The notes under the pieces: model-generated
The model's input: only the letters and a program-made list of their open reading frames with translations
Told to the model about the DNA's origin: nothing
The model's database searches: none
Position numbers and translations under genes: made by a program
Assembly: GCA_963796685.1 (NCBI GenBank)
Contig: CAWCMR010000022.1
Coordinates: 176,457-240,456 of the forward strand
Reading direction: 5' to 3'
DNA length: 64,000 nucleotides
From: an uncultured delta proteobacterium
Lineage (GTDB): Bacteria > Myxococcota_A > Polyangia > Fen-1088
Shown: piece by piece, positions 10,850 to 64,000 of the stretch
Layout of the letters: each line of letters begins with the position of its first letter
Position numbering within the stretch: the first letter of the stretch is position 1

Positions 10850-10933
10850 TGGTGCCTGGGCGGGTGGCACTGCTTCTGAGCAAGACGGGTGCCATTCCCT
10901 TGCCTCACCACAGAGGCGTCTGCATCTATGTGT

Positions 10934-11558: not shown

Positions 11559-11986
11559 CTACCAGCCGATCGCAACCAGCATGTATTGCGGGTTGGCGTG
11601 CGACATGTAGCTCGAATAACTGCCGACATCGTCGTAGGAGAAGCCATACGCGCGCCCTCCGAGGGCATTGTCGTGCCAGAACCTGGCGTAGTAGTCGGCG
11701 GGGGCGGTTTGATAGAAGGTCGAGCTGTCCTTCCAGAGCGTCTTGTCGAGCAGCTTGCCGCTCGGGTCGAAGGTTCCGGCGAGGTGGCCGACGTGGCGGA
11801 AGATGGCGGCCGAAAGATCCGGATACGATCCCAGCCCGCTGCCGTTCGGGCCGGGTTTGGCGACCGTCAGGCCGTTGGCCGCCCACAAGGAATCGACAAA
11901 GGAATCGTAGTAATTGGCATACGCACCGCCGGTCTTGAATCCGTCCGCGCCTGGTTCGACGATGCGATAGGGAGGACTTTCATCAT
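11559..11986 (-). pseudogene. C-terminal fragment of a GH64 beta-1,3-glucanase
   Basis: FYQTAPADYYARFWHD..GRAYGFSYDDV motif; N-terminal half absent; the RBS-linked ATG is out of frame. Confidence 0.72.
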
Positions 11987-11997
11987 GAACGGCCTCC

Positions 11998-13130: not shown

Positions 13131-13284
13131 GGCGAATCCATCGCCTACCGGAAAGGCGCGCGAAGCACGTCGGCAGGGTTGCATCCCATCATGGTAACAC
13201 GGCGAAGGCGTAGCACGACGGACCCACACCCTTGGAGTCAAAGAGGGTGGACGACGGCTCACGCCCGGACCGACCAGGTGTCGC

Positions 13285-14430: not shown

Positions 14431-14749
14431 CGCTCTCCCACGTCGCCGACGGTGTGATGGTGGCGTAGGATTTACTGGTGCGCGGCTCGGCCATCATGGG
14501 CGCCACGGCATCGCGCCAGGTTTGATAGTGCGCCGTCTGTTTGTGCGCCGCCGCGCCTTCCTGCCCACGGTAAACCTCGAACAGCACGAAGCGGGTGGGA
14601 TCGGCGCCCTCCTGCACGACATCGAAGCGCACGACGCCGGGTTCGCGAATGCTGGCCGCCGCGTTCCCCAGGGCGGCCGCGCGAAAGGCCTCGACCGATT
14701 CGGGCAGCACGTGGACGTAAACCAATACCGCAAGGTGCGAATCCGACAT
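14411..14749 (-). CDS. ABM/LsrG-like monooxygenase or isomerase
   Basis: EPGVVRFDV..DPTRFVLFEVY..AAHKQTAHY. Confidence 0.85.
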   Translation of the reverse strand: MSDSHLAVLVYVHVLPESVEAFRAAALGNAAASIREPGVVRFDVVQEGADPTRFVLFEVYRGQEGAAAHKQTAHYQTWRDAVAPMMAEPRTSKSYATITPSATWESDGRKRV

Positions 14750-14812
14750 GAGCGAAACCATAGCGGGTGCACCCAGTGATGCCAAGTCCATGCGCAACTC
14801 GGCGGATCCGGA

Positions 14813-14933
14813 TCTTTCACCACAGAGGGCGCAGAGGGCGCAGAGGGCGGAAAGGAAAGGGTTCTCCGAATCCCAGAATCCGAACCTGTCTTCGTCCGCA
14901 ACCTCTGTGCTCTCTGTGCTCTCTGTGGTGAAG
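14813..14933. repeat. Inverted repeat whose arms are 9-bp tandem units (CACCACAGAG[GGCGCAGAG]n / complement)
   Basis: Arms at about 14813-14850 and 14896-14933 pair; sits at the metH 3' end. Confidence 0.85.
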
Positions 14934-14937
14934 TTTC

Positions 14938-18599
<3,662 letters not shown>

Positions 18600-18603
<4 letters not shown>

Positions 18604-19577
18604 GGTGTTTCCTTGGCGGGTTGGGCAAGCTTGGAAAGAGTGTCAGGTTTGCGAGCGAAAGCACTGATCACGGCGAAGTGGGGCGGTCGCTTCTCGCGCG
18701 AGGTGATCTCGCAGCGTTCGACCGCGAGCCCCGCCTCGTGGGTCAGCCAACCTTGCAGCGCGCTTGGTCGGTATCCCGGGTTCACGTGACCGTAGGGCGC
18801 CGTGGCCTGCTTGTGCTCGTGGCGGGCCAGGGTGCTGATGGTGAGATCGCCACCGACGCGCAGGACGCGCGCAGCCTCGCGCAGCACCAAGACCGGATCC
18901 TTGGTGTAGGTCAGAACATTGAGCAGGAGCACGTGGTCGAAGCGTCCCTCGGGAAAGGGCAGGGCGTGCAGATCCCCGGGCGCGAAACCCACGTTGGCAA
19001 GCCCCGACAGCCGCTGCTCGGCGGCCTGCAGCACCTTCTCGCTTCGGTCGAGGCAGGTCACGCTTCGACAGCGCGGGGCCAGCACGGCCGCGATGGTGCC
19101 GTCGCCCGAGCCGGCGTCCAGCACGTCGCCCAGATGAATGAAGGGCAGGAATCCCAACATGGTCGCCTCCCAGGTCCGGCCGGGCGAGTAGTGCCGATCC
19201 ATCTGGCCGGCCACCGATTCCGGCCAGCTTCCCGGCTTTTCCCGACCGCGCAGCACCTCCTGGCAGCGCGCGCGGTCGGCGCGCAGAAGCGGCTCGTCCC
19301 GCGTTTCCGTGACCAGGTTCCACAGGCGCCGTACCTGCCCCGGCATGGTGGCTTCGTTCATGGCGTAGAAGGTGGAGGCGCCTTCGCGCCGGTCACGCAA
19401 CACGCCGGCCTCGCGCAATTTGCCAAGATGCGTTGACACGCGCGATTGCGGCATTTCCGTTATCTGCGTCATTTCGGCGACCGAAAGCTCATTTCCATCC
19501 AGAAGTGCGGCAAGACGTACCCGTGTCTCGTCGGCAAAGAGCCTCAGAATATCAACTGTTTCCGATAGGTTAGCCAT
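18600..19577 (-). CDS. sahR: ArsR-HTH plus SAM-methyltransferase regulator (SahR/SamR family)
   Basis: N-terminal ArsR ([15 protein letters not shown]), [17 protein letters not shown]; translationally coupled to metH. Confidence 0.85.
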
Positions 19578-19579
19578 CG

Positions 19580-19606
19580 TTTAATCCGGATTAAATGATT
19601 ATAGCA
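19580..19606 (-). promoter_or_regulatory. sahR promoter: extended -10 (TGcTATAAT) and a perfect 16-bp palindrome TTTAATCCGGATTAAA (probable operator)
   Basis: Palindrome at 19580-19595; -10 at 19598-19606 on the minus strand. Confidence 0.65.
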
Positions 19607-19655
19607 CGAGTGTAGCCATAAAATGAGCTTGAAACTCCTCAAGCCGCACTAACGT

Positions 19656-22205
19656 ATGTCGATAATGTGTCCCGTGACACCGAGCACGCCGGGGAGCGGC
19701 ACGCGCTTCTCGGAACGTTATGAAATCAAGAACCAGGCCGGCATGGGCGGCATGGGGACGGTGTACCAAGCGATCGATCGGGACAGCGGAAATCTGATCG
19801 CGCTCAAGATTCTTCATTCGCGCAGCACCATCGAACAGGCCCGTTTCGATCAAGAGGCCCGCGTGCTCTCCGAGCTCTCGCACCCGGGCATCGTGCACTA
19901 TTTCGATCACGGCGTGACGCCGAACGGCTCGCCCTACATCGCCATGGAGTGGCTCGAAGGCGAGACTCTCGAGGACAGACTTGGACGCGGAAATCTCGGT
20001 CCGGCCGCGGCGGCGCACCTCGCACGGCTGGTGCTGGAGGCGTTGTCGGCCGCGCACGCGCGCAACATCGTTCATCGCGACATCAAGCCGGGCAACATCT
20101 TCCTGGTCGGCTGGAAGCTGTCCGAGATCCGCGTGCTCGACTTCGGCATCGCTCGCCGCGTTTTCGACGACAAACGCCTCACGCGCAAGGGCTCCACCGT
20201 GGGCACGCCGCTTTACACATCGCCCGAGCAGGCCCGCGGCCGCGCCGATGTGGACGGGCGCGCCGACATCTTTTCCCTTGGTTGCGTGCTGTTCGAGCTG
20301 CTCACCGGAGAGCCGCCCTTTACGGGGGAAACCCCGCTCGAGGTCATGACCAAGGTTTGCGCGGGGCGCGTGCCCGAGCTTAGGAGTCGCCGTCCGGGAA
20401 TTCCCATGGTCGTGTCCTCGCTGGTGCACGGGATGCTCTCGCCCGATCCGGTCCACCGCCCGCAGTCGGCTGCGGCGCTGGCCGTCGAGTTCGCGGAGGT
20501 GGTGAAGGTGCTGGGGGGAATCACCGGGGAAAGCGCCGCGGCCAGCCTGCCGTCGCGCGCGACGCGTGCCAGCATCAGCGAAAGCGAGGATCATCTGGCC
20601 TCTGCCATCCTGGTGTCCCTTGGCAAACGCGAGCCGGAGAGCACGCCCGGGCTGTTGTCGTCTACCGAGGAGCGCCGGCGGGGACCCAAGGCGGCGTCGA
20701 TCTTCCCATCGATTGCCGAGCGTCCGGGCAAAAGCGCCGAAGATACGCGGCTGGCTGAAATTCGGCGCCTGCTCGAAGCCTACGCGTGCGAGATGGATCG
20801 GCTCCTCAACCGCACCCTGCTTCTCACCGCGCCCACGGTGTCGTCGGCGCAAGAGCAGGCCATCCAGCTCGCGTCCGCCGCACTGGCGCTGCACGATCTC
20901 CAGCCGGACGCCAAGATCGCCATCGCCACGGGGCGCGCCAGTTTTCTCGGTCGCTTGCCCGTCGGGCGGCTGATGGACTGCTTGCCCGTGCTCATGGAAG
21001 GTCAGGAGGCGGGTACCATCCGTCTCGACGACACCACGAGGCGGCTCCTGCCCGCGCGCTTCGCCACGGGCGGTGAGCCAGGCAGTTGGTTCCTCCTCGA
21101 CGAGGGCAATTCGCTTACCGAGGAACGATCGCGCGAATCCGAAGGCCGGGTCAGCCCGTTTCTCGGTCGCGAACGCGAAATCGCCTCGCTGCAATCCCTG
21201 CTGGAAGAGACCCGGGACGAGAAAGCGCCACGCGCGGTCTTGCTTCTCGGTCCACCTGGTCAGGGCAAATCCAGATTGCTGCGCGAGTTTTTGACCGCAA
21301 ACCCGGATGCATCCTTGCAGGTCGCACTGGCCAGCGGCACGCTCTTGCGTATCGAACGGCGCTATCCCGCCCTTGCATCGATGCTCGTCGCGGCAGGTAT
21401 CGACGTGCAGGGCAAGTCGAGCCAACACGTGGAGGAAGCGCTGGCGGCCTGGATCGAGAGTCGCTGCACGCCCAGCGGTTTCTTGTTGGTCGTCGAGGAT
21501 TTGCAGTGGGCCGACACCCCCAGCCTGGAGTTGCTGGATCGGTTGATGCACAGGCTTCACGACAAGCCCCTCATGGTCATCGGCGTGGGCCGCGACGAGG
21601 TCGAAGACAGGTTCCCGGGGTTGTGGAGCGCGCGTTCGGCGCGGCGCCTGCGTCTGCGCCCGCTGTCGCCCAAACAGGGGCTGACCCTGTTGCATTTCTG
21701 GATTCCGTCGGTGTCGCGGACAGCCGCGGACTTCATGCTCGATCGCTGGGAAGGAAACCCGCAGTTCCTCGAGGAGATGGCGGCGCACGCCGCCGACCGG
21801 GGCACGCTCGCGATTCCCGCGGTGGTTCATGCGGTTGGGGAGGGCCGACTCGAGGGCGTCGAGCCCGACGTGCGTCGGGTGCTGCGCGCGGCGAGCCTCT
21901 TCGGCGACAAACCGTTCTGCGTGGACGCCCTCATCTCCTTGCTCGGCGAATCCGCGCGCAAGGGCATCGCCGAGTGGCTGGAAGTCCTGGTCATGCGCGA
22001 CTTCATCGAGCGCGACATCAGGGCAGGCGAGGCGAGCTACCGCTTTCGCGAGCGGCTTCTGCGCGACGCCGCCTACCAGATGCTCACCTCGGCAGACCGT
22101 GTCCTCGGCCGTCGCCTGGCACGGGCCTGGCTGGAAGGCGCGGGCCGCACCCTGCCCGAGTGCCTGGCCTGCCCCACCGTCCACCGCAGCGCCGCCGGCG
22201 GATAG
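19656..22205 (+). CDS. Ser/Thr protein kinase with AAA ATPase domain
   Basis: GMGGMGTVY, HRDIKPGN, DFG, YTSPEQ; FLGRERE, GPPGQGKS, VVEDLQWAD. Confidence 0.93.
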   Translation: MSIMCPVTPSTPGSGTRFSERYEIKNQAGMGGMGTVYQAIDRDSGNLIALKILHSRSTIEQARFDQEARVLSELSHPGIVHYFDHGVTPNGSPYIAMEWLEGETLEDRLGRGNLGPAAAAHLARLVLEALSAAHARNIVHRDIKPGNIFLVGWKLSEIRVLDFGIARRVFDDKRLTRKGSTVGTPLYTSPEQARGRADVDGRADIFSLGCVLFELLTGEPPFTGETPLEVMTKVCAGRVPELRSRRPGIPMVVSSLVHGMLSPDPVHRPQSAAALAVEFAEVVKVLGGITGESAAASLPSRATRASISESEDHLASAILVSLGKREPESTPGLLSSTEERRRGPKAASIFPSIAERPGKSAEDTRLAEIRRLLEAYACEMDRLLNRTLLLTAPTVSSAQEQAIQLASAALALHDLQPDAKIAIATGRASFLGRLPVGRLMDCLPVLMEGQEAGTIRLDDTTRRLLPARFATGGEPGSWFLLDEGNSLTEERSRESEGRVSPFLGREREIASLQSLLEETRDEKAPRAVLLLGPPGQGKSRLLREFLTANPDASLQVALASGTLLRIERRYPALASMLVAAGIDVQGKSSQHVEEALAAWIESRCTPSGFLLVVEDLQWADTPSLELLDRLMHRLHDKPLMVIGVGRDEVEDRFPGLWSARSARRLRLRPLSPKQGLTLLHFWIPSVSRTAADFMLDRWEGNPQFLEEMAAHAADRGTLAIPAVVHAVGEGRLEGVEPDVRRVLRAASLFGDKPFCVDALISLLGESARKGIAEWLEVLVMRDFIERDIRAGEASYRFRERLLRDAAYQMLTSADRVLGRRLARAWLEGAGRTLPECLACPTVHRSAAGG

Positions 22206-31733: not shown

Positions 31734-31796
31734 GGACCGAATCTAGCACCACAGAGGGCACGGAGAATTGGGAACTTCCCAGGGTTCCGCCAGACC

Positions 31797-31999
31797 GCGC
31801 GAGGCCGAGCGCAGCGAGGGGGAGGTAGGGCGGGTTGGTGGTGCCTCGGGTTTGGGAACCCTTTGAGGGTTCCCATGATCGCGTTGGCGTAGCCGGGCTT
31901 TGCCCGGCAGAGCCATAGCGCGCGAGGCCGAGCGCAGCGAGCGGGGTGGTGGGTGGCGGGTAGGGGCCTCGGGTTTGGGAACCCTTTGAGGGTTCCCAT
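31797..31999. repeat. Two 80-bp direct repeats (31797-31876 and 31920-31999), each ending in the hairpin TGGGAACCCTTTGAGGGTTCCCA
   Basis: Identical ends, variable G-rich middle of equal length. Confidence 0.88.
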
Positions 32000-36686: not shown

Positions 36687-36776
36687 AAGGGGCGGGCCGC
36701 GGCCCGCCCCTCGTCCGCGAAGTGAATTCGCGGACTTCACCCCACCTGCGGCCGAGCCTTTGGCTCGGCTTTCTGA
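36687..36776 (-). repeat. Dispersed ~90-bp palindromic element, copy 2
   Basis: Matches 10761-10849. Confidence 0.85.
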
Positions 36777-36807
36777 TGACCTGTCCAATTGATGGACAGG
36801 TCATCAG
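36773..36807 (-). terminator. Long hairpin CTGATGACCTGTCCA-attga-TGGACAGGTCATCAG at the regulator stop codon
   Basis: 15-bp perfect stem; no U-tract. Confidence 0.5.
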
Positions 36808-48496: not shown

Positions 48497-48520
48497 ATAT
48501 CTATAGAAATCTATGGATAT
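48497..48520. promoter_or_regulatory. Inverted repeat ATATCTATAGA-aa-TCTATGGATAT over the antitoxin start (probable autoregulatory operator)
   Basis: 11-bp arms with one mismatch; TTGACC at 48484. Confidence 0.55.
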
Positions 48521-48746
48521 TCCTACATTGTCCGTGCACCTGCCTGCGCTGCTCTACAAGAAGGTCCGCGCCGCTGCCAAGCGCGCCAAGCTGAAGCCAT
48601 CTCAGTTTGCCCGCAAGGCGGTCGAGAACGAGTTTCGGCGCATGCCTCCTGCGTTGACCATGGGCGCGCTGATCCGTACCGCCAGACTTGCGCCAGGCTA
48701 CGATCCTGCAGCACCTGTATTCGACGACAGCGACTGGCAACAATGA
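48513..48746 (+). CDS. Ribbon-helix-helix antitoxin
   Basis: TLSVHLPALLYKKVRAAAK..PSQFARKAV; overlaps the start of a PIN gene. Confidence 0.7.
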   Translation: MDIPTLSVHLPALLYKKVRAAAKRAKLKPSQFARKAVENEFRRMPPALTMGALIRTARLAPGYDPAAPVFDDSDWQQ

Positions 48747-49026
48747 CGGAGAAGCAGGCCTATCTTCTCGACACGCACGCCGCGATTTGGTTGCAGGTTG
48801 AGCCTTCGCGTCTTGGTGCGCGCGCCAGTCGGGCACTCGCGGAGCCGATCCACCGTACCTGGTTGTCCAGGAGATCCCGCTGCGAGGATTGCAGCAGGTG
48901 GAATCCCATCTCGACCGCCTTGTCCCGGCGCCGCAGGTCGAGCCGGCGGTGCCGAACGCCAACCCGCTGCGCGGCCTGCTGCACGTCTCGATCATCATCG
49001 AGCGGACCTACAAGCTCAAGCCGTAG
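48743..49026 (+). pseudogene. Truncated VapC/PIN toxin joined to an unrelated 3' fragment
   Basis: YLLDTHAAIW..RL..RTWLS, then similarity is lost at about 48868. Confidence 0.68.
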
Positions 49027-49201
49027 TTTATAAAAGGAAGACTTTTGTAAGGTCAAGTGTTCGCCTGCGGCAGCCCGCTTCGGGGTCACGGTCGACAACG
49101 CCGGTCACCGATTCGTCGCGGTCACCACGGTGGCCGCCTGAGGCAGGAGCGTCCAAACAAAGAGACGGGCGCCCTGGGGCGCCCGTGGGTGGATGACAAT
49201 G

Positions 49202-52460: not shown

Positions 52461-52575
52461 GGGATGAGTTAAGCACAACCTACCTGCCACGCGCCGGGTT
52501 TCGACGCTAGACTCTGTGTGCTTGTCCGAGATTGACGATCCACCCTTTGACGTGCCCCAGCTGCGCGACGCGGAA

Positions 52576-54705
52576 ATGGCGCCGGCCGAGCGCACGCTTG
52601 CCGAGATCCTGGAGCGGTTGCCCACCCAGCCCGGCGTGTATCTGATGAAGGATCGGCGGGGCAAGATCATCTACGTGGGCAAGGCGGCCAACCTGCGCAA
52701 CCGCGTGCGCCAGTATTTCCAGCCCGCCAGCGGCGACACCCGCGACTTCGTGCCCCTGCTGGAAGGCATCGTGGGCGACATCGAGACCGTGGTGACCGGC
52801 AACGAGAAGGAAGCCCTGCTGCTGGAGAACAACCTCATCAAGCGCCACCAGCCGCGCTTCAACGTCAAGCTGACCGACGACAAGAACTACCTGGTGTTGC
52901 GCCTGGACCCGCGCTCGGCGTGGCCGCGCCTGGAGGTCGTGCGCAAGATGGCCGACGATGGCGCGCGCTACTTCGGTCCGTACCATTCGGCCACCGCGTG
53001 CCGCGAGGCCCTGCGCGTGGTGAACCGGCACTTCCAGTTGCGTATCTGCACCGACCACACCCTGGCCAGTCGCAAGCGCCCGTGCCTGCAATACCAGATC
53101 AAGCGTTGCCTCGCGCCTTGCGTGCTGGCGGTCCCCCCTGACGACTACGCCGAGCAGGTGCGCTTCGTCAGCCTCTTCCTCGAAGGCAAGAGCGACGAGC
53201 TCTTGGACGATCTACGCCTGCGCATGAAGGACGCCGCCGGCCGCATGGCCTTCGAGCGCGCGGCCACCTTGCGCGACCAGGTGCGCGCCCTGGAATCGGT
53301 GCTGGAATCGCAGCGGGTGGTGCAGGACACCTTCGCCGACCAGGACGTGCTCGGCTTTCACCGCGAGGGCCAGGCCGTGGAGATCGTCGTGCTCTTCGTG
53401 CGCCAGGGCAAGCTGGTGGGCAACCGCGCTTTTTCCTTCGGCAAGCAGGAATTTCCCGACGACGAGATCTTGTCGAGCTTCCTCGGCCTGTTCTACGACC
53501 TGCAGGCCACGCCACCCGCCGAGGTGCTGTTGCCGTTCGCCATCGCCGACATCGAGGTGAAGGCCGAGTGGTTGACCGACAAGCGCGAAAAGAAGGTGCA
53601 AGTCTTCGTGCCCCAGCGCGGTCCGCGCCGCGCGCTGGTGGAGCTGGCGCGCAAGAACGCCGCCGCCAGCTTCGTCACCCGGCGCGATCACAGTAAGGAC
53701 ACCGAGACCACCCTGGCCCGCCTGCAACGCCGCCTGGGTTTGGCCAAGGTGCCGCGCGTGATCGAGTGCTACGACATCTCGCACGTGCAGGGCACGGATC
53801 CCGTGGCGTCCATGGTCGTGTTCGAGGATGGCGAGCCGGCCAAGGCACGCTACCGAACGTACAAGATCAAGCGCGCCACGGGCGGTGACGACTTCGCGTC
53901 CATGTACGAGGTGCTGTCGCGCCGGTTCCGCCGCGGGCGCGAGGCGACGGACGAGAACGACCCGTGGCGGCTGCCGGACTTGCTGGTCGTCGACGGCGGC
54001 AAGGGCCAGCTCGGCGTGGCGCTGGCCGCCGCGCGCGATGTCGGCATCGACGTGCGTCCTGGAGCCGGCCTGCCCATCGTCGCCCTGGCCAAGGAGCGCG
54101 AATCCGTGGCGTCCGAACCGGAAGCCCAGCTCGCCATGGATTTCAGACCGGCGGCCAAGGCCGAGCCCGTGGCGAGCACCGAGCCTGCGCCACGCAGCGA
54201 AGCCGAGGCAAGCGACGAAGCCACGCCAAGCAGCGAAGCCGAGGCGAGCAGCGAAGCCACGCCAAGCAGCGAGGCAAGCGGCGGGCCCGCGGCGCCGGCC
54301 GAGCCTGGCCCCAACCCCACGGGCCCCAGCCCCACGCCCGTGGCCAAGCAGGCGAGTCAGCGTTCCCCGACCAGCCGTCCCGACCGCGTGTTCCTGGCCC
54401 ACGGCAAAGACCCCATTCCCATCGGCCCCACCAGCGCCGAGATGTTCGTGCTGGCCCGCCTGCGCGACGAGGCCCACCGCTTCGCCGTCGGCTTTCACCG
54501 CAGCCTGCGCAAACGGCGCACCCTGCGCTCGGCCCTGTCCAGCATTCCCGGTGTCGGCCCGGCTCGCCAGCGCGCGCTGCTGCGCCACTTCGGCAGCCTG
54601 AAGAAGGTCGGCGAAGCGTCCCTGGAGGAATTGCTGGCCGCGCCCGGCATGACCGACTCCGCGGCGAGCGCCGTGCGCGAGCACTTCGCGGCCCAGGCGA
54701 AATAG
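52576..54705 (+). CDS. uvrC: Excinuclease ABC subunit C
   Basis: GIY-YIG (PGVY..YVGKA), IECYDISH, VDGGKGQ, RDEAHRFA, HhH; start could be 52516. Confidence 0.96.
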   Translation: MAPAERTLAEILERLPTQPGVYLMKDRRGKIIYVGKAANLRNRVRQYFQPASGDTRDFVPLLEGIVGDIETVVTGNEKEALLLENNLIKRHQPRFNVKLTDDKNYLVLRLDPRSAWPRLEVVRKMADDGARYFGPYHSATACREALRVVNRHFQLRICTDHTLASRKRPCLQYQIKRCLAPCVLAVPPDDYAEQVRFVSLFLEGKSDELLDDLRLRMKDAAGRMAFERAATLRDQVRALESVLESQRVVQDTFADQDVLGFHREGQAVEIVVLFVRQGKLVGNRAFSFGKQEFPDDEILSSFLGLFYDLQATPPAEVLLPFAIADIEVKAEWLTDKREKKVQVFVPQRGPRRALVELARKNAAASFVTRRDHSKDTETTLARLQRRLGLAKVPRVIECYDISHVQGTDPVASMVVFEDGEPAKARYRTYKIKRATGGDDFASMYEVLSRRFRRGREATDENDPWRLPDLLVVDGGKGQLGVALAAARDVGIDVRPGAGLPIVALAKERESVASEPEAQLAMDFRPAAKAEPVASTEPAPRSEAEASDEATPSSEAEASSEATPSSEASGGPAAPAEPGPNPTGPSPTPVAKQASQRSPTSRPDRVFLAHGKDPIPIGPTSAEMFVLARLRDEAHRFAVGFHRSLRKRRTLRSALSSIPGVGPARQRALLRHFGSLKKVGEASLEELLAAPGMTDSAASAVREHFAAQAK
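54196..54279 (+). repeat. 36-bp in-frame repeat (SEAEASxEATPS, about 2.3 copies) inside the uvrC insertion
   Basis: Read directly from the sequence. Confidence 0.8.
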
Positions 54706-54715
54706 GCGCGCCAAA

Positions 54716-55840
54716 CTATCCGTTGCCGTTGTCGTACAGCGTGCCGAGCTCGAGCACGCGGAAATCGGCCAGGCTGATCTTGTCTTGCAGCTCATAACTA
54801 CCCAGCACCCCCGAATCCCAATAGGCCTGCGCGTCGGCCGAACCGTCGGCGTAGAGGCTCATGGCCCCTGAGAAGTCCCCGACGTAGGCGCCGTATTCCT
54901 GGAGTGCCTGCATGATGATGCGGCCCGAAGGGGTGAGGCCGAGACTGTCGAGATTGATGCCGGGGTCGTACTGGATGCGACCGCCACACGGGATGCCCCG
55001 ATCCTTCTGGGCGCCGACGCCATTCGCCGCCTGCGCGGTGCTGGCCGGCGGCGTGTAGAAGCCCGCGCGGATGTGCGGATAGGCGACCACCAGGGCGTGG
55101 TCGATCCGCCCGCTCTGAATCTCGTCGACGCGGATGAGTCCCGCCACCAGTGGAAAACCGCAGGCGCGCGCGCCCGCCGACGTGTACCAGGTCGGGTTGC
55201 CCTGGGCCAGTGGTCGCACCCCCGTGCCGTTCAAGTCCGAGGTGGCGCAAAGTCCCGCGTGCCAGCCGGCGGTTTCATGCACCATGTCCCAACAGCCCCA
55301 CTCCTTCATTTGCTGCTTGTCGATGACCAACAGGTGGTGGTCGCTGTCGGGATCGGGCGCGGCATTGGCCGGAATGGGCATGAGGCCGGTGGTGTTCTGA
55401 CCGTTGCTGCCCGACCATCCAAAGCCGCCAACGTCGGCGCGCACGGTGTAGGTGGGCGTCGAGGCATCGGCGTAGAAGAGCGGGATGGAGTAGCCCTTGA
55501 TGTTGACGTCCAGGTGTTGACCATAGGGCGAGCTGGTTTGCCAATCGGCGATCAACGCCGTGCTGTCGGGATCGATCGTCGGAGTGGAGCCGATGGGGGT
55601 GTTCCAAGGGCTGTCGTCGGAGAATGGCCGCCACGCGGCCGTGGTCGCCCCGCCCGTCGCGGCGGTGCCCGCGGTGGAAGTCGTGGTCCCGCCCGCGGCC
55701 ACGGCGCCTCCCGTGCCGTTCGCGCCGCCGGCTCCGGCATTTCCTCCTGCCGCAGAGTCCGGTGCCGTGGCAGCAGGATGGGTCGTGCCGCAAGCGAGGA
55801 CCAGGAACGTCCAAGAGCAAAGACCGAGCGCCTTGACCAT
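54716..55840 (-). CDS. Hypothetical lipoprotein with Gly/Thr linker and a conserved globular domain
   Basis: Lipobox VLAC; PFSDDSPWNTPI, AGLIRVDEI..IDHAL, ALQEYGAYVGD. Confidence 0.72.
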   Translation of the reverse strand: MVKALGLCSWTFLVLACGTTHPAATAPDSAAGGNAGAGGANGTGGAVAAGGTTTSTAGTAATGGATTAAWRPFSDDSPWNTPIGSTPTIDPDSTALIADWQTSSPYGQHLDVNIKGYSIPLFYADASTPTYTVRADVGGFGWSGSNGQNTTGLMPIPANAAPDPDSDHHLLVIDKQQMKEWGCWDMVHETAGWHAGLCATSDLNGTGVRPLAQGNPTWYTSAGARACGFPLVAGLIRVDEIQSGRIDHALVVAYPHIRAGFYTPPASTAQAANGVGAQKDRGIPCGGRIQYDPGINLDSLGLTPSGRIIMQALQEYGAYVGDFSGAMSLYADGSADAQAYWDSGVLGSYELQDKISLADFRVLELGTLYDNGNG

Positions 55841-55951: not shown

Positions 55952-55967
55952 TGGCACGTCCTTCGCA
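55952..55967 (+). promoter_or_regulatory. Sigma54 promoter candidate for intI: TGGCACGTCCTTCGCA
   Basis: GG-N10-GC, 13 bp upstream of ATG 55981. Confidence 0.6.
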
Positions 55968-55980
55968 TTGTCTTTCGCCC

Positions 55981-57036
55981 ATGAAGAACAGCGGCCGAAA
56001 TAGCGACCAAAATGCAACCATCATCCCCCTTGTCCAGCCCCTCGTCCGGCCGAGTCCCGGACAGGCGGCTGGGATTCCGGCCAAACCGCCGAACCTTCTA
56101 GAACAAGCCCGAGAAAGCCTGCGCGCCCGTCATTACAGCGGCCGCACCGAGAAGGCATACCTTGGATGGATCCACCGCTTCATCAGGTTCCATGGCAACC
56201 GCCATCCCGAATCCATGGGTGAAGCCGAGATCGGCGCCTACCTGTCGAACCTGGCCGAGGACAAGGTCAGCTCGTCGACGCAAAACCAGGCCCTGGCTGC
56301 CCTGCTGTTCCTGTACCAGCAAGTGCTCGAGCGCGAGCTGGCCTGGCTTGGGAACATGGTCCACGCCAAACGGCCCAAACAGGTCCCCGTCGTGCTTGGT
56401 CGCCCGGAGGTGCGACTCGTGCTGGACCATCTCGATGGGATACCGTGGTTGGTGGGAGCCCTTCTTTACGGTAGCGGCTTGCGCCTGCTCGAAGCCCTGC
56501 GGTTGCGAGTGAAGGATCTAGACCTGGACCGTCGCGAAATCACCGTGCGCAGGGGCAAGGGCCAAAAGGATCGCCGGACCGTGCTGCCGGATACGTTGGT
56601 CGAGCCGCTACGTTCCCATCTTCTGAGCGTCAAGGCCCAGCACGACCGCGACCTCGGTCAAGGCGCTGGCGCCGTTGTCCTGCCCGACGCTCTCGACCGC
56701 AAGTATCCCAATGCCCCGCGCGAGTGGATCTGGCAGTGGGTCTTCCCCGCGACCCGAACCTACACCGATCCCGCCAGCCACGAAATCCGTCGTCACCACC
56801 TGCACGAAACCGTCATTCAGCGCGCTATCCGCAAAGCCGCCGTGACCGCCGGTATCGCGAAACCCGTGAGCCCACATACGCTGCGTCATTCCTTCGCCAC
56901 CCACATGCTCGAAGCTGGCTATGACATCCGCACCATCCAGGAGCTGCTGGGCCACCGGGACGTGAGCACCACCATGATCTATACCCACGTCCTCAACCGC
57001 GGAGCCTGCGGCGTGCGCAGCCCTCTCGACCGCTGA
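55981..57036 (+). CDS. intI: Integron integrase
   Basis: [34 protein letters not shown], IntI-specific insert ([19 protein letters not shown]), [15 protein letters not shown]. Confidence 0.97.
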
Positions 57037-57221
57037 AAACGAGCAGTTCTGCAGCGTTTTGTTATCGCGTTATCGAGCTTCCCGCAGGCGCGATCCGTGG
57101 CCCGAAAAGCCAGGTACCAGGATCCTCGCACCTGCAACACCGCGGAATCACTTGCCCCCGGCTTCCGTCCGACACAGCCAAGCGGCAATACTCTCGCAGG
57201 AATATTGGGGTACCCTCTGCA

Positions 57222-57240
57222 GGCTAATAGTAAGTTCGAC
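57222..57240 (+). other. attI site (L box GGCTAAT, 5-bp spacer, R box G|TTCGAC)
   Basis: GTTCGAC is the exact reverse complement of the first attC R'' (GTCGAAC). Confidence 0.75.
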
Positions 57241-57297
57241 AGTCACGCATCCGGGTGGGTAGAGGTCTGGCTTGGCTCCCGGCAGCTCTAGCAAACA

Positions 57298-57777
57298 TCA
57301 GCGGCCGCCGGGTGTCTGCGTCGCTCTTACCTGGCGGATTCTCGCTTCCAGGTGGCTGATGTGCCAGTCGAGGTGGCGGTAATAGTCGTGCGCCAGGTAC
57401 TCCAGGCTCAGTTCCTTGTCACCGACGATCCAGACGTTGCCAAGGCGCGCGGGATCCAAGTTGGAAACCAGGTGCAGCACAAAGGCGTTGTAGGACCGCA
57501 GGAGGTCGAGCATGGTCTTCCAAGCCAGGCCCTCGGGCTTTTCGATGGCGACCCAAGGCTCCGCCTCGTAGGGAGGGAAAACCAGACGCTGGGTGCGCTG
57601 CAGGTGCGTGAAGCGCTGGTGGTTGTTGCTGGCCGAATCAACGAGATGGCAGGCGATCTGCTTGATACTCCAGTCCTCGGCGGAAGGCTTGAGGTCGACC
57701 AGCGACTCGGGCACGGACTCGAACAGCGCCAGCAGGCGCGCAAGTGTGGCTTGAAAGCCAGCGATTGTAATTTCCAT
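57298..57777 (-). CDS. DinB-family protein, cassette 1 (inverted)
   Basis: WSIKQIACHLVDS..NNHQRF, DYYRHLDWH. Confidence 0.88.
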   Translation of the reverse strand: MEITIAGFQATLARLLALFESVPESLVDLKPSAEDWSIKQIACHLVDSASNNHQRFTHLQRTQRLVFPPYEAEPWVAIEKPEGLAWKTMLDLLRSYNAFVLHLVSNLDPARLGNVWIVGDKELSLEYLAHDYYRHLDWHISHLEARIRQVRATQTPGGR

Positions 57778-57872
57778 GACACGACCCTAGCCCATCAATC
57801 GGCGTTGTAGAAGGACCGATATCGCTGATTGTGGACGAACCGTGAGGAACGCTCGTCGAGGAGAGGTGTGCT

Positions 57873-57976
57873 GTCGAACAAGCCGTTGCAGCGGATGTGG
57901 TCGCCGCGGGGACATCGTGTAGAATCGCGGCGCCAGCTTGGCGGCGCCCACACCGCTGAACGGCAAGGAGTTGGGC
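57873..57976 (+). other. attC site 1 (104 bp)
   Basis: GTCGAAC-AAGCCGTTGCAGCGG...CCGCTGAACGGC-AAGGA-GTTGGGC. Confidence 0.9.
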
Positions 57977-58068
57977 AGACCGCCGCGCCAGCGCATCTTG
58001 ACTTGGTGGCGCAAACAGAGCAATTCCGCTAATGTGTAGGAGCGAACAGCAGCTAGAACAGGAGAACG

Positions 58069-59145
58069 ATGGGCGACATCAACATCGGCGAAGAAGTGCG
58101 AAAGGCATTTGAAGAAGCCATGCGCGAGCGCGGCCATGCGAACATCCTCCTTGCTGGGCGGACAGGTGTGGGTAAGAGCACACTCGTCAACAGTGTGTTC
58201 CAGGGAGAATTCGCCACAACTGGGCAGGGTCGTCCGGTGACGACTGGGACGAGGGAAATCAACAAGCCCGGGACACCTCTTACCATCTTCGATACTCGTG
58301 GGCTGGAGATGGCCGAGTTCGCCGCGACTATCGCCAACCTAAAGTCCTTCCTTGCCGAGCGTCGTGCGGAACACGATCCGCGCCGACACATTCACGTTGC
58401 CTGGGTCTGCATCGCCGAGGATCTCCGCCGAGTGGAGAATGCCGAGTCAGCCTTGGTTGAAATGCTGGCAGACTTCATGCCAGTGCTGGGGGTGATCACC
58501 AAGGCTCGGGCCGACAACGGCTTTCGCGCTGAGGTTCAGCGCCTTCTTCCGCGCACCACAAATACGCTTCGTGTTCGCTCCATCGCAGAACAGCTTGACG
58601 ATGGTCACAGCCTTCCGCCGATGGGTCTAGTTGAACTCGTCCGCGCCACGGTGGACCTAATCCCGGAGGGACAAAGGCGGGCCTTCGTTGCCGCTCAGAA
58701 GGCTGATCTAGCGCTCAAGCGCAAGAAGTCTCAATTCATTGTGGCCGGAGCTGTGGTAGCAGCAACTGGCGTGGCCTTTATCCCGCTGCCGTTCGCCGAC
58801 GCGCTCGCGCTTGTCCCGATTCAGATTGGTATGCTCGCCGGGATAACTGCCACCTACGGCCTCGATTTTTCCGACGGATTTCTGAGTACCTTACTTGGCG
58901 CCACTGTGGGCAGCGGTGCCGCAACACTTGGTGGAAGAGCTATCGTCGCCGGCCTGCTCAAGCTGATCCCGGGGGCCGGCACCGCGTTGGGCGGTGTGAT
59001 AAGCGCGGCGACTGCTTCTGCATTGACGACGGCTCTCGGGGAAGCTTACATCGCGGCTTTGGACCTTCTGTTCGCAAAACATGGGGGTGAGCAGCCGAGT
59101 GCAGATGAAGTATTGGCTGCCGTGAAGACTCACTTCCACAAATAG
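58069..59145 (+). CDS. Era/MMR_HSR1-like GTPase with C-terminal DUF697-like hydrophobic region, cassette 2
   Basis: GRTGVGKS, DTRG, PLPFADALALVPIQIGML, LLKLIPGAG. Confidence 0.85.
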   Translation: MGDINIGEEVRKAFEEAMRERGHANILLAGRTGVGKSTLVNSVFQGEFATTGQGRPVTTGTREINKPGTPLTIFDTRGLEMAEFAATIANLKSFLAERRAEHDPRRHIHVAWVCIAEDLRRVENAESALVEMLADFMPVLGVITKARADNGFRAEVQRLLPRTTNTLRVRSIAEQLDDGHSLPPMGLVELVRATVDLIPEGQRRAFVAAQKADLALKRKKSQFIVAGAVVAATGVAFIPLPFADALALVPIQIGMLAGITATYGLDFSDGFLSTLLGATVGSGAATLGGRAIVAGLLKLIPGAGTALGGVISAATASALTTALGEAYIAALDLLFAKHGGEQPSADEVLAAVKTHFHK

Positions 59146-59148
59146 GCT

Positions 59149-59219
59149 GCCCAACAAGCCGTTGCAGCTGACGGTCGGCCGCAGACGGCCGCCCGCAGCT
59201 GAACGGCAAGGCGTTCGGC
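59149..59219 (+). other. attC site 2 (71 bp)
   Basis: GCCCAAC...GTTCGGC with a paired stem. Confidence 0.92.
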
Positions 59220-59238
59220 GGACGCGAATCGGTGAAGG

Positions 59239-59266
59239 TTGACCCAAGGTCATACCGGGTTATACT
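59239..59266 (+). promoter_or_regulatory. Cassette-internal sigma70 promoter TTGACC-N16-TATACT
   Basis: Ends 6 bp before the antitoxin ATG; overlapped by ATAC/GTAT repeats. Confidence 0.7.
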
Positions 59267-59272
59267 GGGGGT

Positions 59273-59509
59273 ATGAAGACCGCAGTTTCCATCCCAGACG
59301 AGATCTTTGAGCGGGCTGAGACCCTCGCGCACCGGGCGAAGCGCTCGAGGAGTGAGGTCTATTCGTGTGCACTCAGCGAATACGTGGCGCGCCACGCGCC
59401 GGACAGTGTCACAGAGGCGATGAACCGTGTTCTCGACGACGTGAAGGAGCCGGCCGATGGATTTGCATCGCGTGCTGCCCGGCGCACGCTGGAGCGTAAC
59501 GAGTGGTGA
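59273..59509 (+). CDS. RHH antitoxin, cassette 3
   Basis: MKTAVSIPDEIFERAE..SRSEVY. Confidence 0.88.
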   Translation: MKTAVSIPDEIFERAETLAHRAKRSRSEVYSCALSEYVARHAPDSVTEAMNRVLDDVKEPADGFASRAARRTLERNEW

Positions 59510-59850
59510 CGGTCTCTCAGGGAGAGGTGTGGTGGGCGGATCTCGGCGAACCACGCGGATCGAAGCCAGGATTCCGACGGCCGGTATTGATCATACAAGG
59601 TGATGCTTTGAACCGGAGTCGAATCGCGACTGCCGTATGCGTTGCCTTGACCAGTAACGTGAAGTGGGCTTCTGCCCCGGGCAACGTTCTTCTTTCCGAG
59701 AGCGCGACCGGGCTACCCAGGGAATCGGTGGCGAATGTCTCGCAGATTGTGACTCTCGACAAGTCCGAGTTGACTGCGCGAGTGGGCAAACTGCCCAAGG
59801 CGAAACTGGAGCTTGTCCTGTCCGGAGTGGACGTGGTGCTTGGACGGTAA
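59503..59850 (+). CDS. mazF: MazF/PemK endoribonuclease toxin, cassette 3
   Basis: QGEVWWADL..GSKPGFRRPVLIIQ, SVANVSQIVTLDK. Confidence 0.92.
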   Translation: MVTVSQGEVWWADLGEPRGSKPGFRRPVLIIQGDALNRSRIATAVCVALTSNVKWASAPGNVLLSESATGLPRESVANVSQIVTLDKSELTARVGKLPKAKLELVLSGVDVVLGR

Positions 59851-59856
59851 GCCGCC

Positions 59857-59927
59857 GCCGAACAAGCCGTTGAAGCGGATGGTCGGCCGCGGACGGCCGC
59901 CCACCGCTTAACGGCAAGGCGTTCGGT
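59857..59927 (+). other. attC site 3 (71 bp)
   Basis: GCCGAAC...GTTCGGT. Confidence 0.92.
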
Positions 59928-60053
59928 GGGCGCGCGGGCCAGCTTGGAGATCGCTGGCCGTCGGTGGGTGCGCGGGTCTTCTCTCGCACGTTGGTCTGGA
60001 GGAAGCGGACGACAAAGACCGTGCCGGCGAGGTGCTTCAGATGGCTGGCCGCC

Positions 60054-60220
60054 GCCGAACCGGCCGTTGCAGCGGTCGAGGGCCTGTCAACTCTCGGTCG
60101 ACGGTCAACGAGCCGGGGCCGCGCGGCTCATCAGACGAACGAAGGCCGCCGCGCGGCCCCGGCAGTGCTACTATCGATCAGCCGGGACGGCCCTCGCCGC
60201 TGAACGGCACGCCGTTCGGC
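60054..60220 (+). other. attC site 4 (167 bp, branched), closing a gene-less cassette
   Basis: GCCGAAC-CGGCCGTTGCAGCGG...CCGCTGAACGGC-ACGCC-GTTCGGC. Confidence 0.85.
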
Positions 60221-60373
60221 GGACGCGAATGAGCCCCTGTCGGTAGTGGGACGATGCCATTCCGAGATTCCGGGTCACAGCGGAAGGAGCCGCGGTGTGT
60301 GATGGACACCTCCATGCGAAGGTCACGCCAACGCTTGTCGCCGTTGAACCGACCATTGGAGTACGATGTGGCG

Positions 60374-62440
60374 ATGGACCACGATGATGTGCTGGAGGCA
60401 AATCGCTCTGCCTTTGAGCGGAACTTCAAGATACAGGATCTCTCCGGTGCGGACATTCTCCGCTTCCTGGCTGCATCCGAGGTGGAAGCCACATGGATTC
60501 GCGCCTTTCAGGACGGTAAGGTGTGGGCTCTCGTCGCCAAGGCCAAGTCGAAGCCCCTCGTCGAAGGCCTTGGACTGAATCGTGAGTTCCTGATCCTTAT
60601 TTCATCGTTTGACGACTTCCAACCTCGAACGCTTTCCCTACGCCAGGCAGTAGATTCATCCCTCCAGACACCGGGACGCCTCGACAACATCACAATCGTA
60701 GTGAGTTCTGATCCCGTTCTTCGCGACATCCTTCCAAAGCTCGAAGACCCACGGCAGATCCTCCTCGGGATTGCGCCATCAGAGGTCCTCTCCGCGCTTC
60801 AAGGGGGCCATCCAAGTGAGCGGTTTCGACAGTTCCTTCAGGAACGGCTGTACGCGCGAGACTTCTTCGACCGATCGGGACCGGTCTACGGTGCAGATTT
60901 CTTTGGCAGAGAGAAGACGCTGCAAGACGTGGCGGTACAGCTGAAACGTGGCAGTCATGTAGGATTGTATGGCCTCCGAAAGGTTGGCAAAACCTCGATC
61001 ATCAATGCCCTCCGCGAGCGCCAGGCAACCCTCATACCCGAGGCTCACTTCGTTCACCTTGACCTGCTCTCTGTGACACCGGCGAATCGAAACTATCGGT
61101 TCCTGTACTTCCTGATCGCGACAGAGCTGAAGAAGCTTGGCCTACCCGCGACGTCCGTTCCATCCAATGGACGATTCGACGCAATAGCCGACCTGAATGC
61201 GTTCGAAAGAGGCTTTGACGCCGACCTTCGTGAGGGGCTTGCCAAGCTTCGGGAGCGAGGGCAGCGTCTCGTCCTCATCCTCGATGAAATAGAGCGGCTG
61301 TTTCCGGCTCTAGACGTGCGCACTGGGTTTGACGGCTACGATGCGTTCCTGGAGTACGTCCGCGGTCTATCCCAGTCCGCCGGTCCCTTGTCGCTGATGG
61401 TCGTTGGCGTAAATCCTCACGTATCCGAAGCCGAGCTTCTCGGAAATCGCCAGAATCCAATGTTCGGCTTCTTCGTTACTCGGTACGCTCCGCCAATGTC
61501 CGCCGAAGAGGTTAACGAAATGGTCAAGACCCTCGGAAGATCTTCCGGGGCCCACTTTGATCATGAGGCGATCACCCTGATGCATTCGTATCTCGGTGGC
61601 CACCCATTCCTTATCCGCCGGTACTGCTCGCTGGTGATCAAGGATAGAACCCGCCCGGCTCAAATATCCCCTACTGACATCGAGAATAATCGGGAGCGAT
61701 TCCTTCGACAAGAGACGAGCCTCTTCGCGGAGATGGTTTCAGTAGTTAAGGATTTTTATCCGGAGGAGTTCAGCGCGCTCCATCGAATTGCGACCGGGGA
61801 CCACCTTAATGCCAGCCACTTCAACCGCAGAATCGTCGCACACCTTGAGGGATACCAGCTTGTCGAGGAGAGCGGCGGCAAGCTCGAGATGCGATACCGC
61901 CTTATGAAGGATTGGATGCTCGGTGTCAGCAGAAGAGTAGCATCTGAGGTGAGCAAGCCCCTCGTCTCGTTTGGTAGCGAGCGCGATGACGCTGGCCCTA
62001 ATACAATCGACCACGAATTGATCGCCGACACAATCAAGGAGCTGGAACTTTCGCTGCGAGGCAAGATTCGTCAGGTCCTTGAGGAGCGCTACGCCGGGAA
62101 GGCTGACCAACGCGTTGAACTGGCAATTGGCGCGGATGCTTTGACCATGGCCCAGGAACGGCTCGCTAGATCGTTGCGCTTTCGTCCGGCTTCGGACAGC
62201 TCGACCTCTGAAATACTCGAGTTCCTGTACATCGGTGATCTCGAGCGAATTATCTGTGGGAACGAATGGCAGCACTTTCGAGAAATCTTTGGCGACAAGA
62301 AGGAAACGCAGAGAAATCTCCAGATCGCTGCGGGATGTCGGACCGAGGTGCAACACTTTCGGACACTACCAAGGCGCGAGTGCGCAAAGGCATGGGTCGC
62401 AGCATCCGAACTACTCGACAAGGTTGGGAATGATGGGTGA
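60374..62440 (+). CDS. STAND/AAA ATPase with winged helix and C-terminal HEPN-like domain, cassette 5
   Basis: FFGRE, GLRKVGKT, LVLILDEIE, GGHPFL; C-terminal LEFLYIGDL..W..F..R-TEVQ-H; start could be 60254 or 60302. Confidence 0.8.
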   Translation: MDHDDVLEANRSAFERNFKIQDLSGADILRFLAASEVEATWIRAFQDGKVWALVAKAKSKPLVEGLGLNREFLILISSFDDFQPRTLSLRQAVDSSLQTPGRLDNITIVVSSDPVLRDILPKLEDPRQILLGIAPSEVLSALQGGHPSERFRQFLQERLYARDFFDRSGPVYGADFFGREKTLQDVAVQLKRGSHVGLYGLRKVGKTSIINALRERQATLIPEAHFVHLDLLSVTPANRNYRFLYFLIATELKKLGLPATSVPSNGRFDAIADLNAFERGFDADLREGLAKLRERGQRLVLILDEIERLFPALDVRTGFDGYDAFLEYVRGLSQSAGPLSLMVVGVNPHVSEAELLGNRQNPMFGFFVTRYAPPMSAEEVNEMVKTLGRSSGAHFDHEAITLMHSYLGGHPFLIRRYCSLVIKDRTRPAQISPTDIENNRERFLRQETSLFAEMVSVVKDFYPEEFSALHRIATGDHLNASHFNRRIVAHLEGYQLVEESGGKLEMRYRLMKDWMLGVSRRVASEVSKPLVSFGSERDDAGPNTIDHELIADTIKELELSLRGKIRQVLEERYAGKADQRVELAIGADALTMAQERLARSLRFRPASDSSTSEILEFLYIGDLERIICGNEWQHFREIFGDKKETQRNLQIAAGCRTEVQHFRTLPRRECAKAWVAASELLDKVGNDG

Positions 62441-62447
62441 GGCCGCC

Positions 62448-62518
62448 GCCGAACAAGGCGTTGCACCCGACGATCGGCCGCGGACGGCCGCTCGCGGGTG
62501 AACGCCAACGCGTTCGGC
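62448..62518 (+). other. attC site 5 (71 bp)
   Basis: GCCGAAC...GTTCGGC. Confidence 0.92.
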
Positions 62519-62531
62519 AGACCAGGCTCCC

Positions 62532-62601
62532 ATGACAGGCAGTAGAAACCTTTGGCGCTTTCTTGGTGTTGCCCTCGTCGCCGTCGGCATCGTACTAGCC
62601 C
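62532..62601 (+). pseudogene. 5' end of the cassette 6 ORF (hydrophobic N-terminus), interrupted by IS4
   Basis: MTGSRNLWRFLGVALVAVGIVLA runs into the IS terminal repeat. Confidence 0.5.
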
Positions 62602-64000
62602 CAATGCCAGTCGGTTAAGCATTTGAAGGCCGTTTTCTCGGGAAATTGCTCATTTTGATCTTCACGGCCCGTGGATATCTGCGGGCCGTGCGCCGCTCTG
62701 GGAGAACAAGGCTGGTGAAGAGCTCTCGCATGGTCTTGAGGCGAGTAGGCAAAGCGCCGGGCGAGGCGAGCGCACACCATGACCAGGTGTCACAGATGAT
62801 CCGAAGTGACGTGACGAAGCTGATGCGGGTGGGCTCGACGCCGAAATCGTCGGCAGTCCTTTCCATTTCGAGGCGAATCAAGTTGTACGCGAGAAGAATG
62901 CCCCACAATTCCTGCTCGACGCCAGCGACGCTGCGGCAGCGGATGCTTTCGAGACGGTCGAGCATATCGGTCTTGATTTCGCCATAGCCCAGTTCCAGCT
63001 CCCAGCGCTCGTGATAAAGGCGGGCGACCTCGGCAGCGGGGAAGGCGTCGGGGTCGAGCATCGAGGTGAGCACGATCTGAGGACGGAATCCCTTCACCTG
63101 GTAGGTGATCGCACGTGCCAGATAGGTCGCTGGCAAACTTGGGTCCTGCTTTCGCGCCTCGCGCGAAACCGTCAACTCGACCAGGTCGTCGTTCTTCCCG
63201 AGGTGCTCCACGACGCGCCATTTTGTGGTCGACTTGGCGCGAGTCAGCCAATGGCGATTCTTTCCATCGCGGGCCAGCGGCACCAGGATTCCGGCTGCCA
63301 GGAAGCCGCGGTCGACCATCACCAGCGCATTGTCCGGCACGGCTCGCCACAGAAACGCGCTCAGCGTGATTTCACTGTCTTCGTAGGGGCCGAATTCGGC
63401 GGCCACCAGAATGTGCGAACGCAACGCCATCAACGCGGCGATTCGAACCAGCGGATAGCCACTGTCGCCTCGGTCGCCTCGGGTTCCACCGAAATGAGCG
63501 CGATTTTCCGGAGAGTCTGCCACGCGAAGCGTGGACCCATCCACACCGTAGAGCGCCAGGCCTCTCCATGCGTGCTTGCGCGCGCTCTCGTGGCCCCACT
63601 TCTGAGCGCTCATCTCGAAGATCCGTTCCAGCGGCTCGGCACCAACGCGCGCCCGAGCCTCAGCGACCGTGCTGGGAACAACCGTTGCTCGTGGTCCAGG
63701 CAGAACCAAATTCAGCTTCCCAACCAAGTCCGCAATAGGCCACTTCCGAAACATGGCCATTCCAATCACCAGCCACACCACCTGGTCGGCCGGAAGCCGT
63801 CGCTTTCGCACCGTGGCTGTTCCAGTCGCCGCCAGAGCCTCGGCCACCCACGCAGGGTCAATGTGCTGCCTGATGCTCTCGAACTGCTCGGGCGCCGTGA
63901 ATACGCTTACCGTCTTGAGGGAACTATCCAGATGCATGACCTTCTCCATCGAAGATCGATGCATGGTGACTTCGCTTCTTGCCTAAAGGCAAGAAGCGAA
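62602..64000 (-). mobile_element. IS4-family insertion sequence; its other end lies beyond the window
   Basis: Terminal repeat CAATGCCAGTCGGTTAAG resembles the IS4 end; subterminal hairpin at 63971-64000. Confidence 0.88.
62615..63937 (-). CDS. IS4-family DDE transposase
   Basis: VRKRRLP, VDGS, VDRGF, YHERWELELGYGEIK (YREK motif). Confidence 0.95.
   Translation of the reverse strand: MHLDSSLKTVSVFTAPEQFESIRQHIDPAWVAEALAATGTATVRKRRLPADQVVWLVIGMAMFRKWPIADLVGKLNLVLPGPRATVVPSTVAEARARVGAEPLERIFEMSAQKWGHESARKHAWRGLALYGVDGSTLRVADSPENRAHFGGTRGDRGDSGYPLVRIAALMALRSHILVAAEFGPYEDSEITLSAFLWRAVPDNALVMVDRGFLAAGILVPLARDGKNRHWLTRAKSTTKWRVVEHLGKNDDLVELTVSREARKQDPSLPATYLARAITYQVKGFRPQIVLTSMLDPDAFPAAEVARLYHERWELELGYGEIKTDMLDRLESIRCRSVAGVEQELWGILLAYNLIRLEMERTADDFGVEPTRISFVTSLRIICDTWSWCALASPGALPTRLKTMRELFTSLVLPERRTARRYPRAVKIKMSNFPRKRPSNA

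Follow-up and report, generated by a model that had tools for sequence, protein, structure and literature searches.

Chromosomal reverse integron in a member of the Polyangia (Myxococcota), with candidate signals for expression of its integrase and cassettes

The 64,000-nt stretch analysed here (the window; contig CAWCMR010000022.1 of assembly GCA_963796685.1, from an uncultured delta proteobacterium) carries a genuine and well-preserved reverse integron, i.e., one with an inverted integrase gene, a layout that is already known. We are confident that it is best explained as a chromosomal reverse integron of a bacterium of the Polyangia (Myxococcota). Seen directly are the parts and their orientation, the hairpins, the cassette boundaries, the intact residues of the enzyme and, in a relative, the same site and repeated cassettes; the recombination chemistry is taken from known integron biochemistry. 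The headline features of the element are known or not diagnostic. To a class already described it contributes a well-preserved member from the Myxococcota; in the accessible part of the 2016 survey the Myxococcales entries are integrases without cassettes (two of three rows). Its main new interest would lie in two leads on the switching-on of the recombinase and the captured genes, a sigma-54 promoter of the integrase gene and promoters in attC loops, which at the level of sequence are statistically supported candidates. Integrase activation without LexA and the expression of cassettes far from the promoter Pc are open points in the field, and each candidate, if true, would answer part of them. 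All coordinates are positions in the window, and L-numbers denote the relative loci used for comparison.

The integrase gene intI (55981..57036, + strand; TIGR02249, 461 bits, cut-off 265) encodes an intact protein of 351 aa. Aligned to 2A3V, IntI keeps all catalytic residues (R168, K193, H299, R302, H325 and Y334) and the contacts to extrahelical bases (K178, R190, K241, Y242, W251, P264, H272 and H273), both sets being identical to the IntI1 set in the available text of PMC3053210. The integron-specific insertion of IntI tyrosine recombinases is present, and the start methionine is invariant in 36/36 aligned proteins. An altered base-binding pocket suiting an extrahelical C was considered and rejected, as these residues equal those of IntI1. 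The gene reads toward attI (57200..57240, +, left limit approximate; 9/9 match to the first R'' box), whose crossover G57234/T57235 is located 197 bp beyond the intI stop; the AT-rich bases AATAGTA precede the attI GTT both in the window and in the relative locus L001. Five attC sites follow on the + strand: attC1 (57873..57976, 104 bp), attC2 (59149..59219, 71 bp), attC3 (59857..59927, 71 bp), attC4 (60054..60220, 167 bp) and attC5 (62448..62518, 71 bp). The 8-nt L'' box comes first in all of them, and they therefore have the same orientation as intI. Together with the position of attI past the 3' end of the gene, this bears out the inverted architecture proposed in an initial annotation of the sequence.

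A strict scan recovered 4/5 attC on the + strand (attC1, with 5/7 in its R boxes, was missed) and no site on the - strand, and 0/200 dinucleotide shuffles gave any. The bottom strands of the five attC fold with z-scores of -3.96 to -7.30, each with 0/200 shuffles as good, and are more stable than the top strands in 4/4 pairs tested, by 0.2-3.6 kcal/mol. A home-built covariance model, made from 16 L001 sites only, likewise places the five sites ahead of everything else in the 64 kb (E 1.7e-23 to 9.8e-6; the match to attC4 is partial), with the next match outside the array at E 0.11. Rfam and tRNA scans of the window found nothing. The five pairs of cassette start and R'' box quoted in the initial annotation are all present in the sequence: at positions 4-9, beyond the GTT, 29/30 bases agree with the cassette's own R'' box, compared with 24/30 in chimeric neighbour pairing, and 6/120 permutations match as well. 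The same comparison in L001 gives 96/96 own-cassette matches versus 66/96 chimeric ones (0/100000 permutations). The tip said to be common to the three 71-bp attC is indeed present, and recurs in three L001 sites. Extrahelical bases follow the pattern T-N6-C in 4/5 window attC and A-N6-C in 1/5, both of which were excised in assays according to the available text of PMC3053210.

The chromosomal position is indicated by uvrC (52516..54705, +; TIGR00194, 549 bits, cut-off 285), the host gene marking the site. The L001 integron, with an IntI 77% identical to that of the window, is found at the same place after uvrC, and four flanking blocks are common to both loci at 85-90% DNA identity (88-90% in uvrC). 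The 10 kb fetched from L001 contain 16 attC, all with an 8-nt spacer and a top-strand G at L'' position 4. A 790-bp cassette occupies positions 1, 4 and 14 of the L001 array, and two other cassettes are present twice. Repeated cassettes are the trace left by replicative excision and re-insertion. The same site, the same attC family and the triplicated cassette support shuffling of a chromosomal integron in this lineage. To the left lie host genes, among them uvrC and one for an S41 peptidase, and a Pfam scan found no transposon or plasmid genes there. Among the 120 matches listed for the S41 peptidase, the close relatives that have a name are three Polyangia and one Deltaproteobacteria; those of the window IntI are Polyangia. 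IntI relatives at 82-85% identity also exist. The array DNA gave no match to plasmids; the IntI gave none at E 1e-100, and its best plasmid counterpart at E 1e-40 is 60.7% identical. The integron is chromosomal, but its inheritance may not have been strictly vertical.

The inverted layout is found in most relatives whose orientation could be called. A scan of species-representative genomes yielded at least 80 loci, to which three plasmid regions were added. Across 84 sources a loop-blind attC scan detected 155 sites, and in 1.10 Mb of shuffles it made one false match. Orientation was called inverted in 26 loci (window included) and canonical in 12, with no call in 46, so that 26/38 callable loci are inverted. 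Mapped on an IntI tree, orientation requires two changes versus 8.1 when shuffled (0/500; 25 inverted and 9 canonical rows), and the window IntI groups with the inverted integrases. One of the inverted integrons (L081, 16607-30360) belongs to plasmid 1 of Gemmatirosa kalamazoonensis and has 27 attC matches in 15 kb. In the accessible portions of PMC8618304 and PMC12614218 nothing was found on integrase orientation.

Several observations weigh against a chromosomal integron that has stayed in place and remained active. The same-site evidence comes from one relative, L001, among the matches listed. The tree is a quick, unrooted one without outgroup, of 85 proteins; stop codons or length led to the exclusion of six loci. 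Within the window there is no duplicated cassette or sign of recent recombination, and neither a consensus promoter nor a conserved Pc was found in the intI-attI spacer. Fourfold-degenerate sites differ between the window and L001 at 75/158 positions in intI versus 158/731 in three neighbouring genes (Fisher p 1.6e-10); the corrected silent divergence is 0.85 versus 0.21-0.31, i.e., about threefold, and both the region upstream of intI and the intI-attI spacer differ between the loci. The divergence and the differing spacers suggest that the platform may therefore have been swapped or re-inserted. We consider it possible, if rather doubtful, that a horizontally exchanged platform has used a hotspot beside uvrC and is thus not strictly sedentary. 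This would also fit the lower GC content at third codon positions of intI (0.76 and 0.70 versus 0.83-0.90), the placement of the window and L001 IntI in different subgroups of the tree, and the truncation in L001 of the neighbouring 374-aa gene (54716..55840, -, divergent from intI, no Pfam family), of which only the 3' end is retained there. However, neither the left flank nor the best plasmid IntI points to a mobile carrier, and genes with low expression often accumulate silent changes more quickly. "Sedentary", as the initial annotation had it, is hence favoured by the uvrC site in L001 and by the lack of any plasmid IntI above 60.7%, but not by the silent divergence of intI and the differing left junction.

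A silent, decaying integron, with intact-looking parts, an unexpressed integrase and an array broken by an insertion sequence, would account for the IS4 element that cuts cassette 6, for the lack of a repeated cassette in the window and for the lack of a sigma-70 promoter in our search upstream of intI. We regard this as quite unlikely, given that IntI retains its six catalytic residues, that the start codon is intact and preceded by a motif conserved in position, and that 29/30 core bases still match. Farther still from the evidence is a canonical integron with a locally flipped intI, or an intI that happens to neighbour a cluster of orphan attC. The accessible part of PMC4889954 does report an inverted intI in one class 1 integron, but the layout recurs in L001, which already largely refutes this explanation, and in the majority of callable relatives. 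In most inverted loci in which attI was located, it lies about 190-300 bp beyond the end of intI. We regard this explanation as extremely improbable. With the chromosomal reverse integron as the preferred reading, the description of the element as active is supported for the lineage, by the intact catalytic residues and sites and the repeated cassettes of L001, but has no sign in this strain. With its sixth cassette interrupted by IS4, the array can be called complete only technically, in that it has intI and attC sites.

The attC family is real and common to the window and L001, yet it is assembled from features found elsewhere; the lineage specificity claimed for it therefore holds only as far as L001, since each feature occurs in other phyla. 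The cores had been described as of GTTCGRY type. Five of six are GTTC, but one (57970) is the canonical GTTGGGC. GTTC cores occur at 26/131 sites in inverted loci and at 0/21 in canonical loci. Seven loci other than the window have them, among these L006 at 8/16 sites. According to the available text of PMC11014356 and PMC5027507, only the triplet is conserved and the remaining core bases come from the downstream cassette. The GTTC core was therefore rejected as a lineage marker, because its bases belong to the incoming cassette and because it is found in seven other loci. C is the first extrahelical base at 100/131 inverted versus 4/21 canonical sites (by locus majority, 13/26 versus 2/12). 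It is rare in classical sets yet tolerated, as far as the accessible portions of PMC2727003 and PMC3053210 show, and was rejected as a novel feature. The attC of blaIMP-1, -4 and -5 (supplement of PMC4889954) have the identical L'' GTTGCAGC and L' GCTGAAC boxes, and hence C as first extrahelical base, but a 5-nt L'-R' spacer, in contrast to 8 nt in the window. The 8-nt spacer is found at 54/131 inverted versus 0/21 canonical sites; one planctomycete and one acidobacterium have it too. The usual length is five to six (PMC5027507, available text) and up to ten nt are allowed (PMC7370490, likewise in part). A search of 11/16 supplement files of PMC4889954 did not turn up GGCAAGGC as a spacer. Kinship and the large arrays of L001, L006, L049 and L081 push all these site counts upward.

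The closest parallels in spacer are Engelhardtia mirabilis Pla133 (L041, 5/5 sites) and the Acidobacteriota locus L049 (19/19), both inverted, with the 8-nt spacer and a top-strand G at L'' position 4, and both top matches of the L001 covariance model; unlike the window, their cores are GTTA, and their IntI are only 55-60% identical. The L049 integron (11879-21004) consists of 19 near-identical short attC. Reverse integrons are known from Treponema, Chlorobium and Blastopirellula (PMC3607928, 10.1101/427781, PMC7691350) and form a paraphyletic group in PMC4889954, in so far as these sources were accessible. The window shares with those of T. denticola, Chlorobium and Blastopirellula an intI directed toward attI and array, an attI about 200 bp past intI, and toxin-antitoxin (TA) as well as gene-less cassettes; it differs in its Myxococcota host and in a GC-rich attC family with 8-nt spacer. 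The T. denticola IntI (L050) is 55% identical to that of the window. Host-gene flanks, a homogeneous attC family, a TA cassette and a gene-less cassette are also features of the sedentary chromosomal integrons of Vibrio type, in which, however, intI is divergent and under LexA control (PMC3108266).

The first regulatory lead is a sigma-54-like -24/-12 motif (GG-N10-GC; 55952..55967, +) that ends 14 nt ahead of the intI ATG and is a candidate promoter of the gene. It scores 11/12 against a sigma-54 consensus, and is found at the same 14 nt in L001 and L002, which with the window make up the three nearest loci; the distance is 12 nt in L008 and 23 nt in L003. Scores of at least 10 were obtained in 7/82 loci with enough upstream DNA, compared with 0.8 in shuffles (maximum 3 in 200), although two of the seven (L027, L055) have the motif far from the intI start; the 64 kb window has 11 such sites across both strands. 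For T. denticola the accessible text proposes a Pint that is sigma-70-like and lacks a LexA box. No gammaproteobacterial LexA box precedes intI in the window or L001, though this consensus may not be that of the host. The chances appear roughly even that sigma-54, and not the SOS response, governs the integrase. No link between an integron integrase and RpoN/sigma-54 is reported among the literature matches listed, and PMC3108266, on LexA-controlled integrons, does not mention RpoN.

The second lead concerns a -10-like hexamer in the loops of long attC. TANNAT occurs on the top strand in 9/9 distinct long attC of the window and L001, which share ancestry, and on the bottom strand in 0/9 (shuffle mean 0.24); the window copies are TAGAAT in attC1 (57920-57925) and TACTAT in attC4 (60169-60174, as TGc-TACTAT at 60166-60174). 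In 71 long attC from 28 other loci, which are partly related, TANNNT ranks first of 64 patterns (z 4.5 versus dinucleotide and 3.2 versus base shuffles). Its summed per-locus fraction is 12.8, compared with 5.9 and 7.6 in shuffles (0/500), 7.0 on the bottom strand, and 7.7, 9.7 and 5.7 in flanking stretches of equal length. Stop codons as the cause of the hexamer were weakened as an explanation, as shuffles keeping TA counts still fall short and as, with L081 and L029 dropped (46/71 sites kept), 19/44 TA on the top strand have T at +6, versus 11/44 on the bottom strand. A tally including L001-model matches was set aside as biased, because that model contains the motif. TANNNT also stands 6 nt before ATG codons at 6146, 47170, 59261 and 60362 (+) and at 57789 and 13196 (-), among the eight cases listed, at least two of them doubtful, which include the DinB and antitoxin cassettes; it is therefore likely a -10 element in this host. 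The host may use many leaderless transcripts.

From these patterns we tentatively suggest that long attC could act as portable outward promoters, in which the loop hexamer, TANNNT with no -35, drives the downstream cassette; each long-attC cassette would then carry a switch for its neighbour. We consider this possible rather than probable. A transcription start inside an attC was seen once (PMC11014356, available text). Against it stand the lack of any -35 consensus near the loop hexamer in our search, the partial kinship of the loci, and the many long attC without TANNNT (in L081 only 1/24 has the hexamer). Moreover, a leaderless promoter at 60362 may serve cassette 5, and, according to the accessible part of a review (PMC8876359), upstream attC sites left downstream transcription unchanged in E. 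coli. No report of promoters in attC loops was found in the literature searched, which left most subscription journals outside and covered, as supplements, 11/16 files of PMC4889954 and 4/5 of PMC8352920. TANNNT candidates are also present in the intI-attI spacer (at 39 and 17 nt in the window, 16 nt in L001), in sequences that are unalike.

Combined with known biochemistry, the parts suggest the following working model. IntI, perhaps transcribed from the sigma-54-type promoter, would bind each attC as a folded bottom strand, in which six pairs stand between an extrahelical C and an extrahelical T or A, and the central spacer is 5/8 nt. Cassettes would be excised by attC x attC recombination, and their circles would enter at the G/TT of attI, 197 bp beyond the intI stop. 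In place of one Pc, -10 elements located in the cassette itself or in an attC would drive most cassettes. The distal array has been broken by the IS4 element.

The captured genes are as follows. Cassette 1 (57235..57970, 736 bp) carries, in antisense, a DinB-superfamily gene (57298..57777, -; PF12867, E 7.6e-11), with TAGGGT (57784-57789) 6 nt before its ATG as a candidate leaderless promoter. Cassette 2 (57971-59213) carries a gene for a GTPase plus DUF697 (58069..59145, +; PF01926 and PF05128 above cut-off). Cassette 3 (59214-59921) combines a sigma-70-type promoter and a TA pair (59239..59850, +), namely an RHH antitoxin (59273-59509, +; below cut-off, E 0.0048) and a PemK/MazF toxin (59503-59850, +). 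Cassette 4 (59922..60214, +, 293 bp) is gene-less and more than half attC. Gene-less cassettes of 293-295 bp also occur in L001 (12484-12778 and 15953-16247), and their attC share with that of the window the CGGCC / GGCAC spacer subtype. Cassette 5 (60215-62512, 2298 bp) carries a STAND-like ATPase gene (60254..62440, +; PF25201, E 1e-6) with an alternative start at 60374, 6 nt after TACGAT; the C-terminus of the protein is weakly HEPN-like (HEPN_Swt1, E 0.088, below cut-off). PADLOC gave weak matches only, for cassettes 2 and 5, and the ATPase gene is a candidate anti-phage gene (PDC-M34B, E 4.4e-5). Of cassette 6 a 5' stub of ~90 bp remains (62513..62601, +, start also given as 62512, right limit approximate), with an open reading frame cut after its start at 62532. 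The L001 array (11235-21041) includes ParE and PIN toxin cassettes, the PIN gene in antisense, and a UDG-family cassette.

The IS4-family element (62602..64000, -; NF033592, 244 bits, cut-off 115) runs off the window and encodes a transposase (63964-62615, -). Its left end is presumably as given, estimated from a resemblance of repeats; plasmid relatives gave no boundary. A perfect 13-bp inverted repeat lies just upstream of the transposase start (63971-64000). In uvrC, an 18-bp tandem repeat (54162-54275) encodes an Ala/Glu/Ser-rich insertion in UvrC. A small RHH/PIN-like gene pair (48513-49033), named by inspection, has a first gene without Pfam match and a seemingly frameshifted second one, and is missing from the L001 alignment blocks. 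A 91-bp direct repeat is located at 31789-31999, and the two copies of a 91-bp inverted repeat are separated by 26 kb (10760-10849 and 36687-36777), with sigma-54-like motifs at 10894 and 36522 near the 91-bp repeats.

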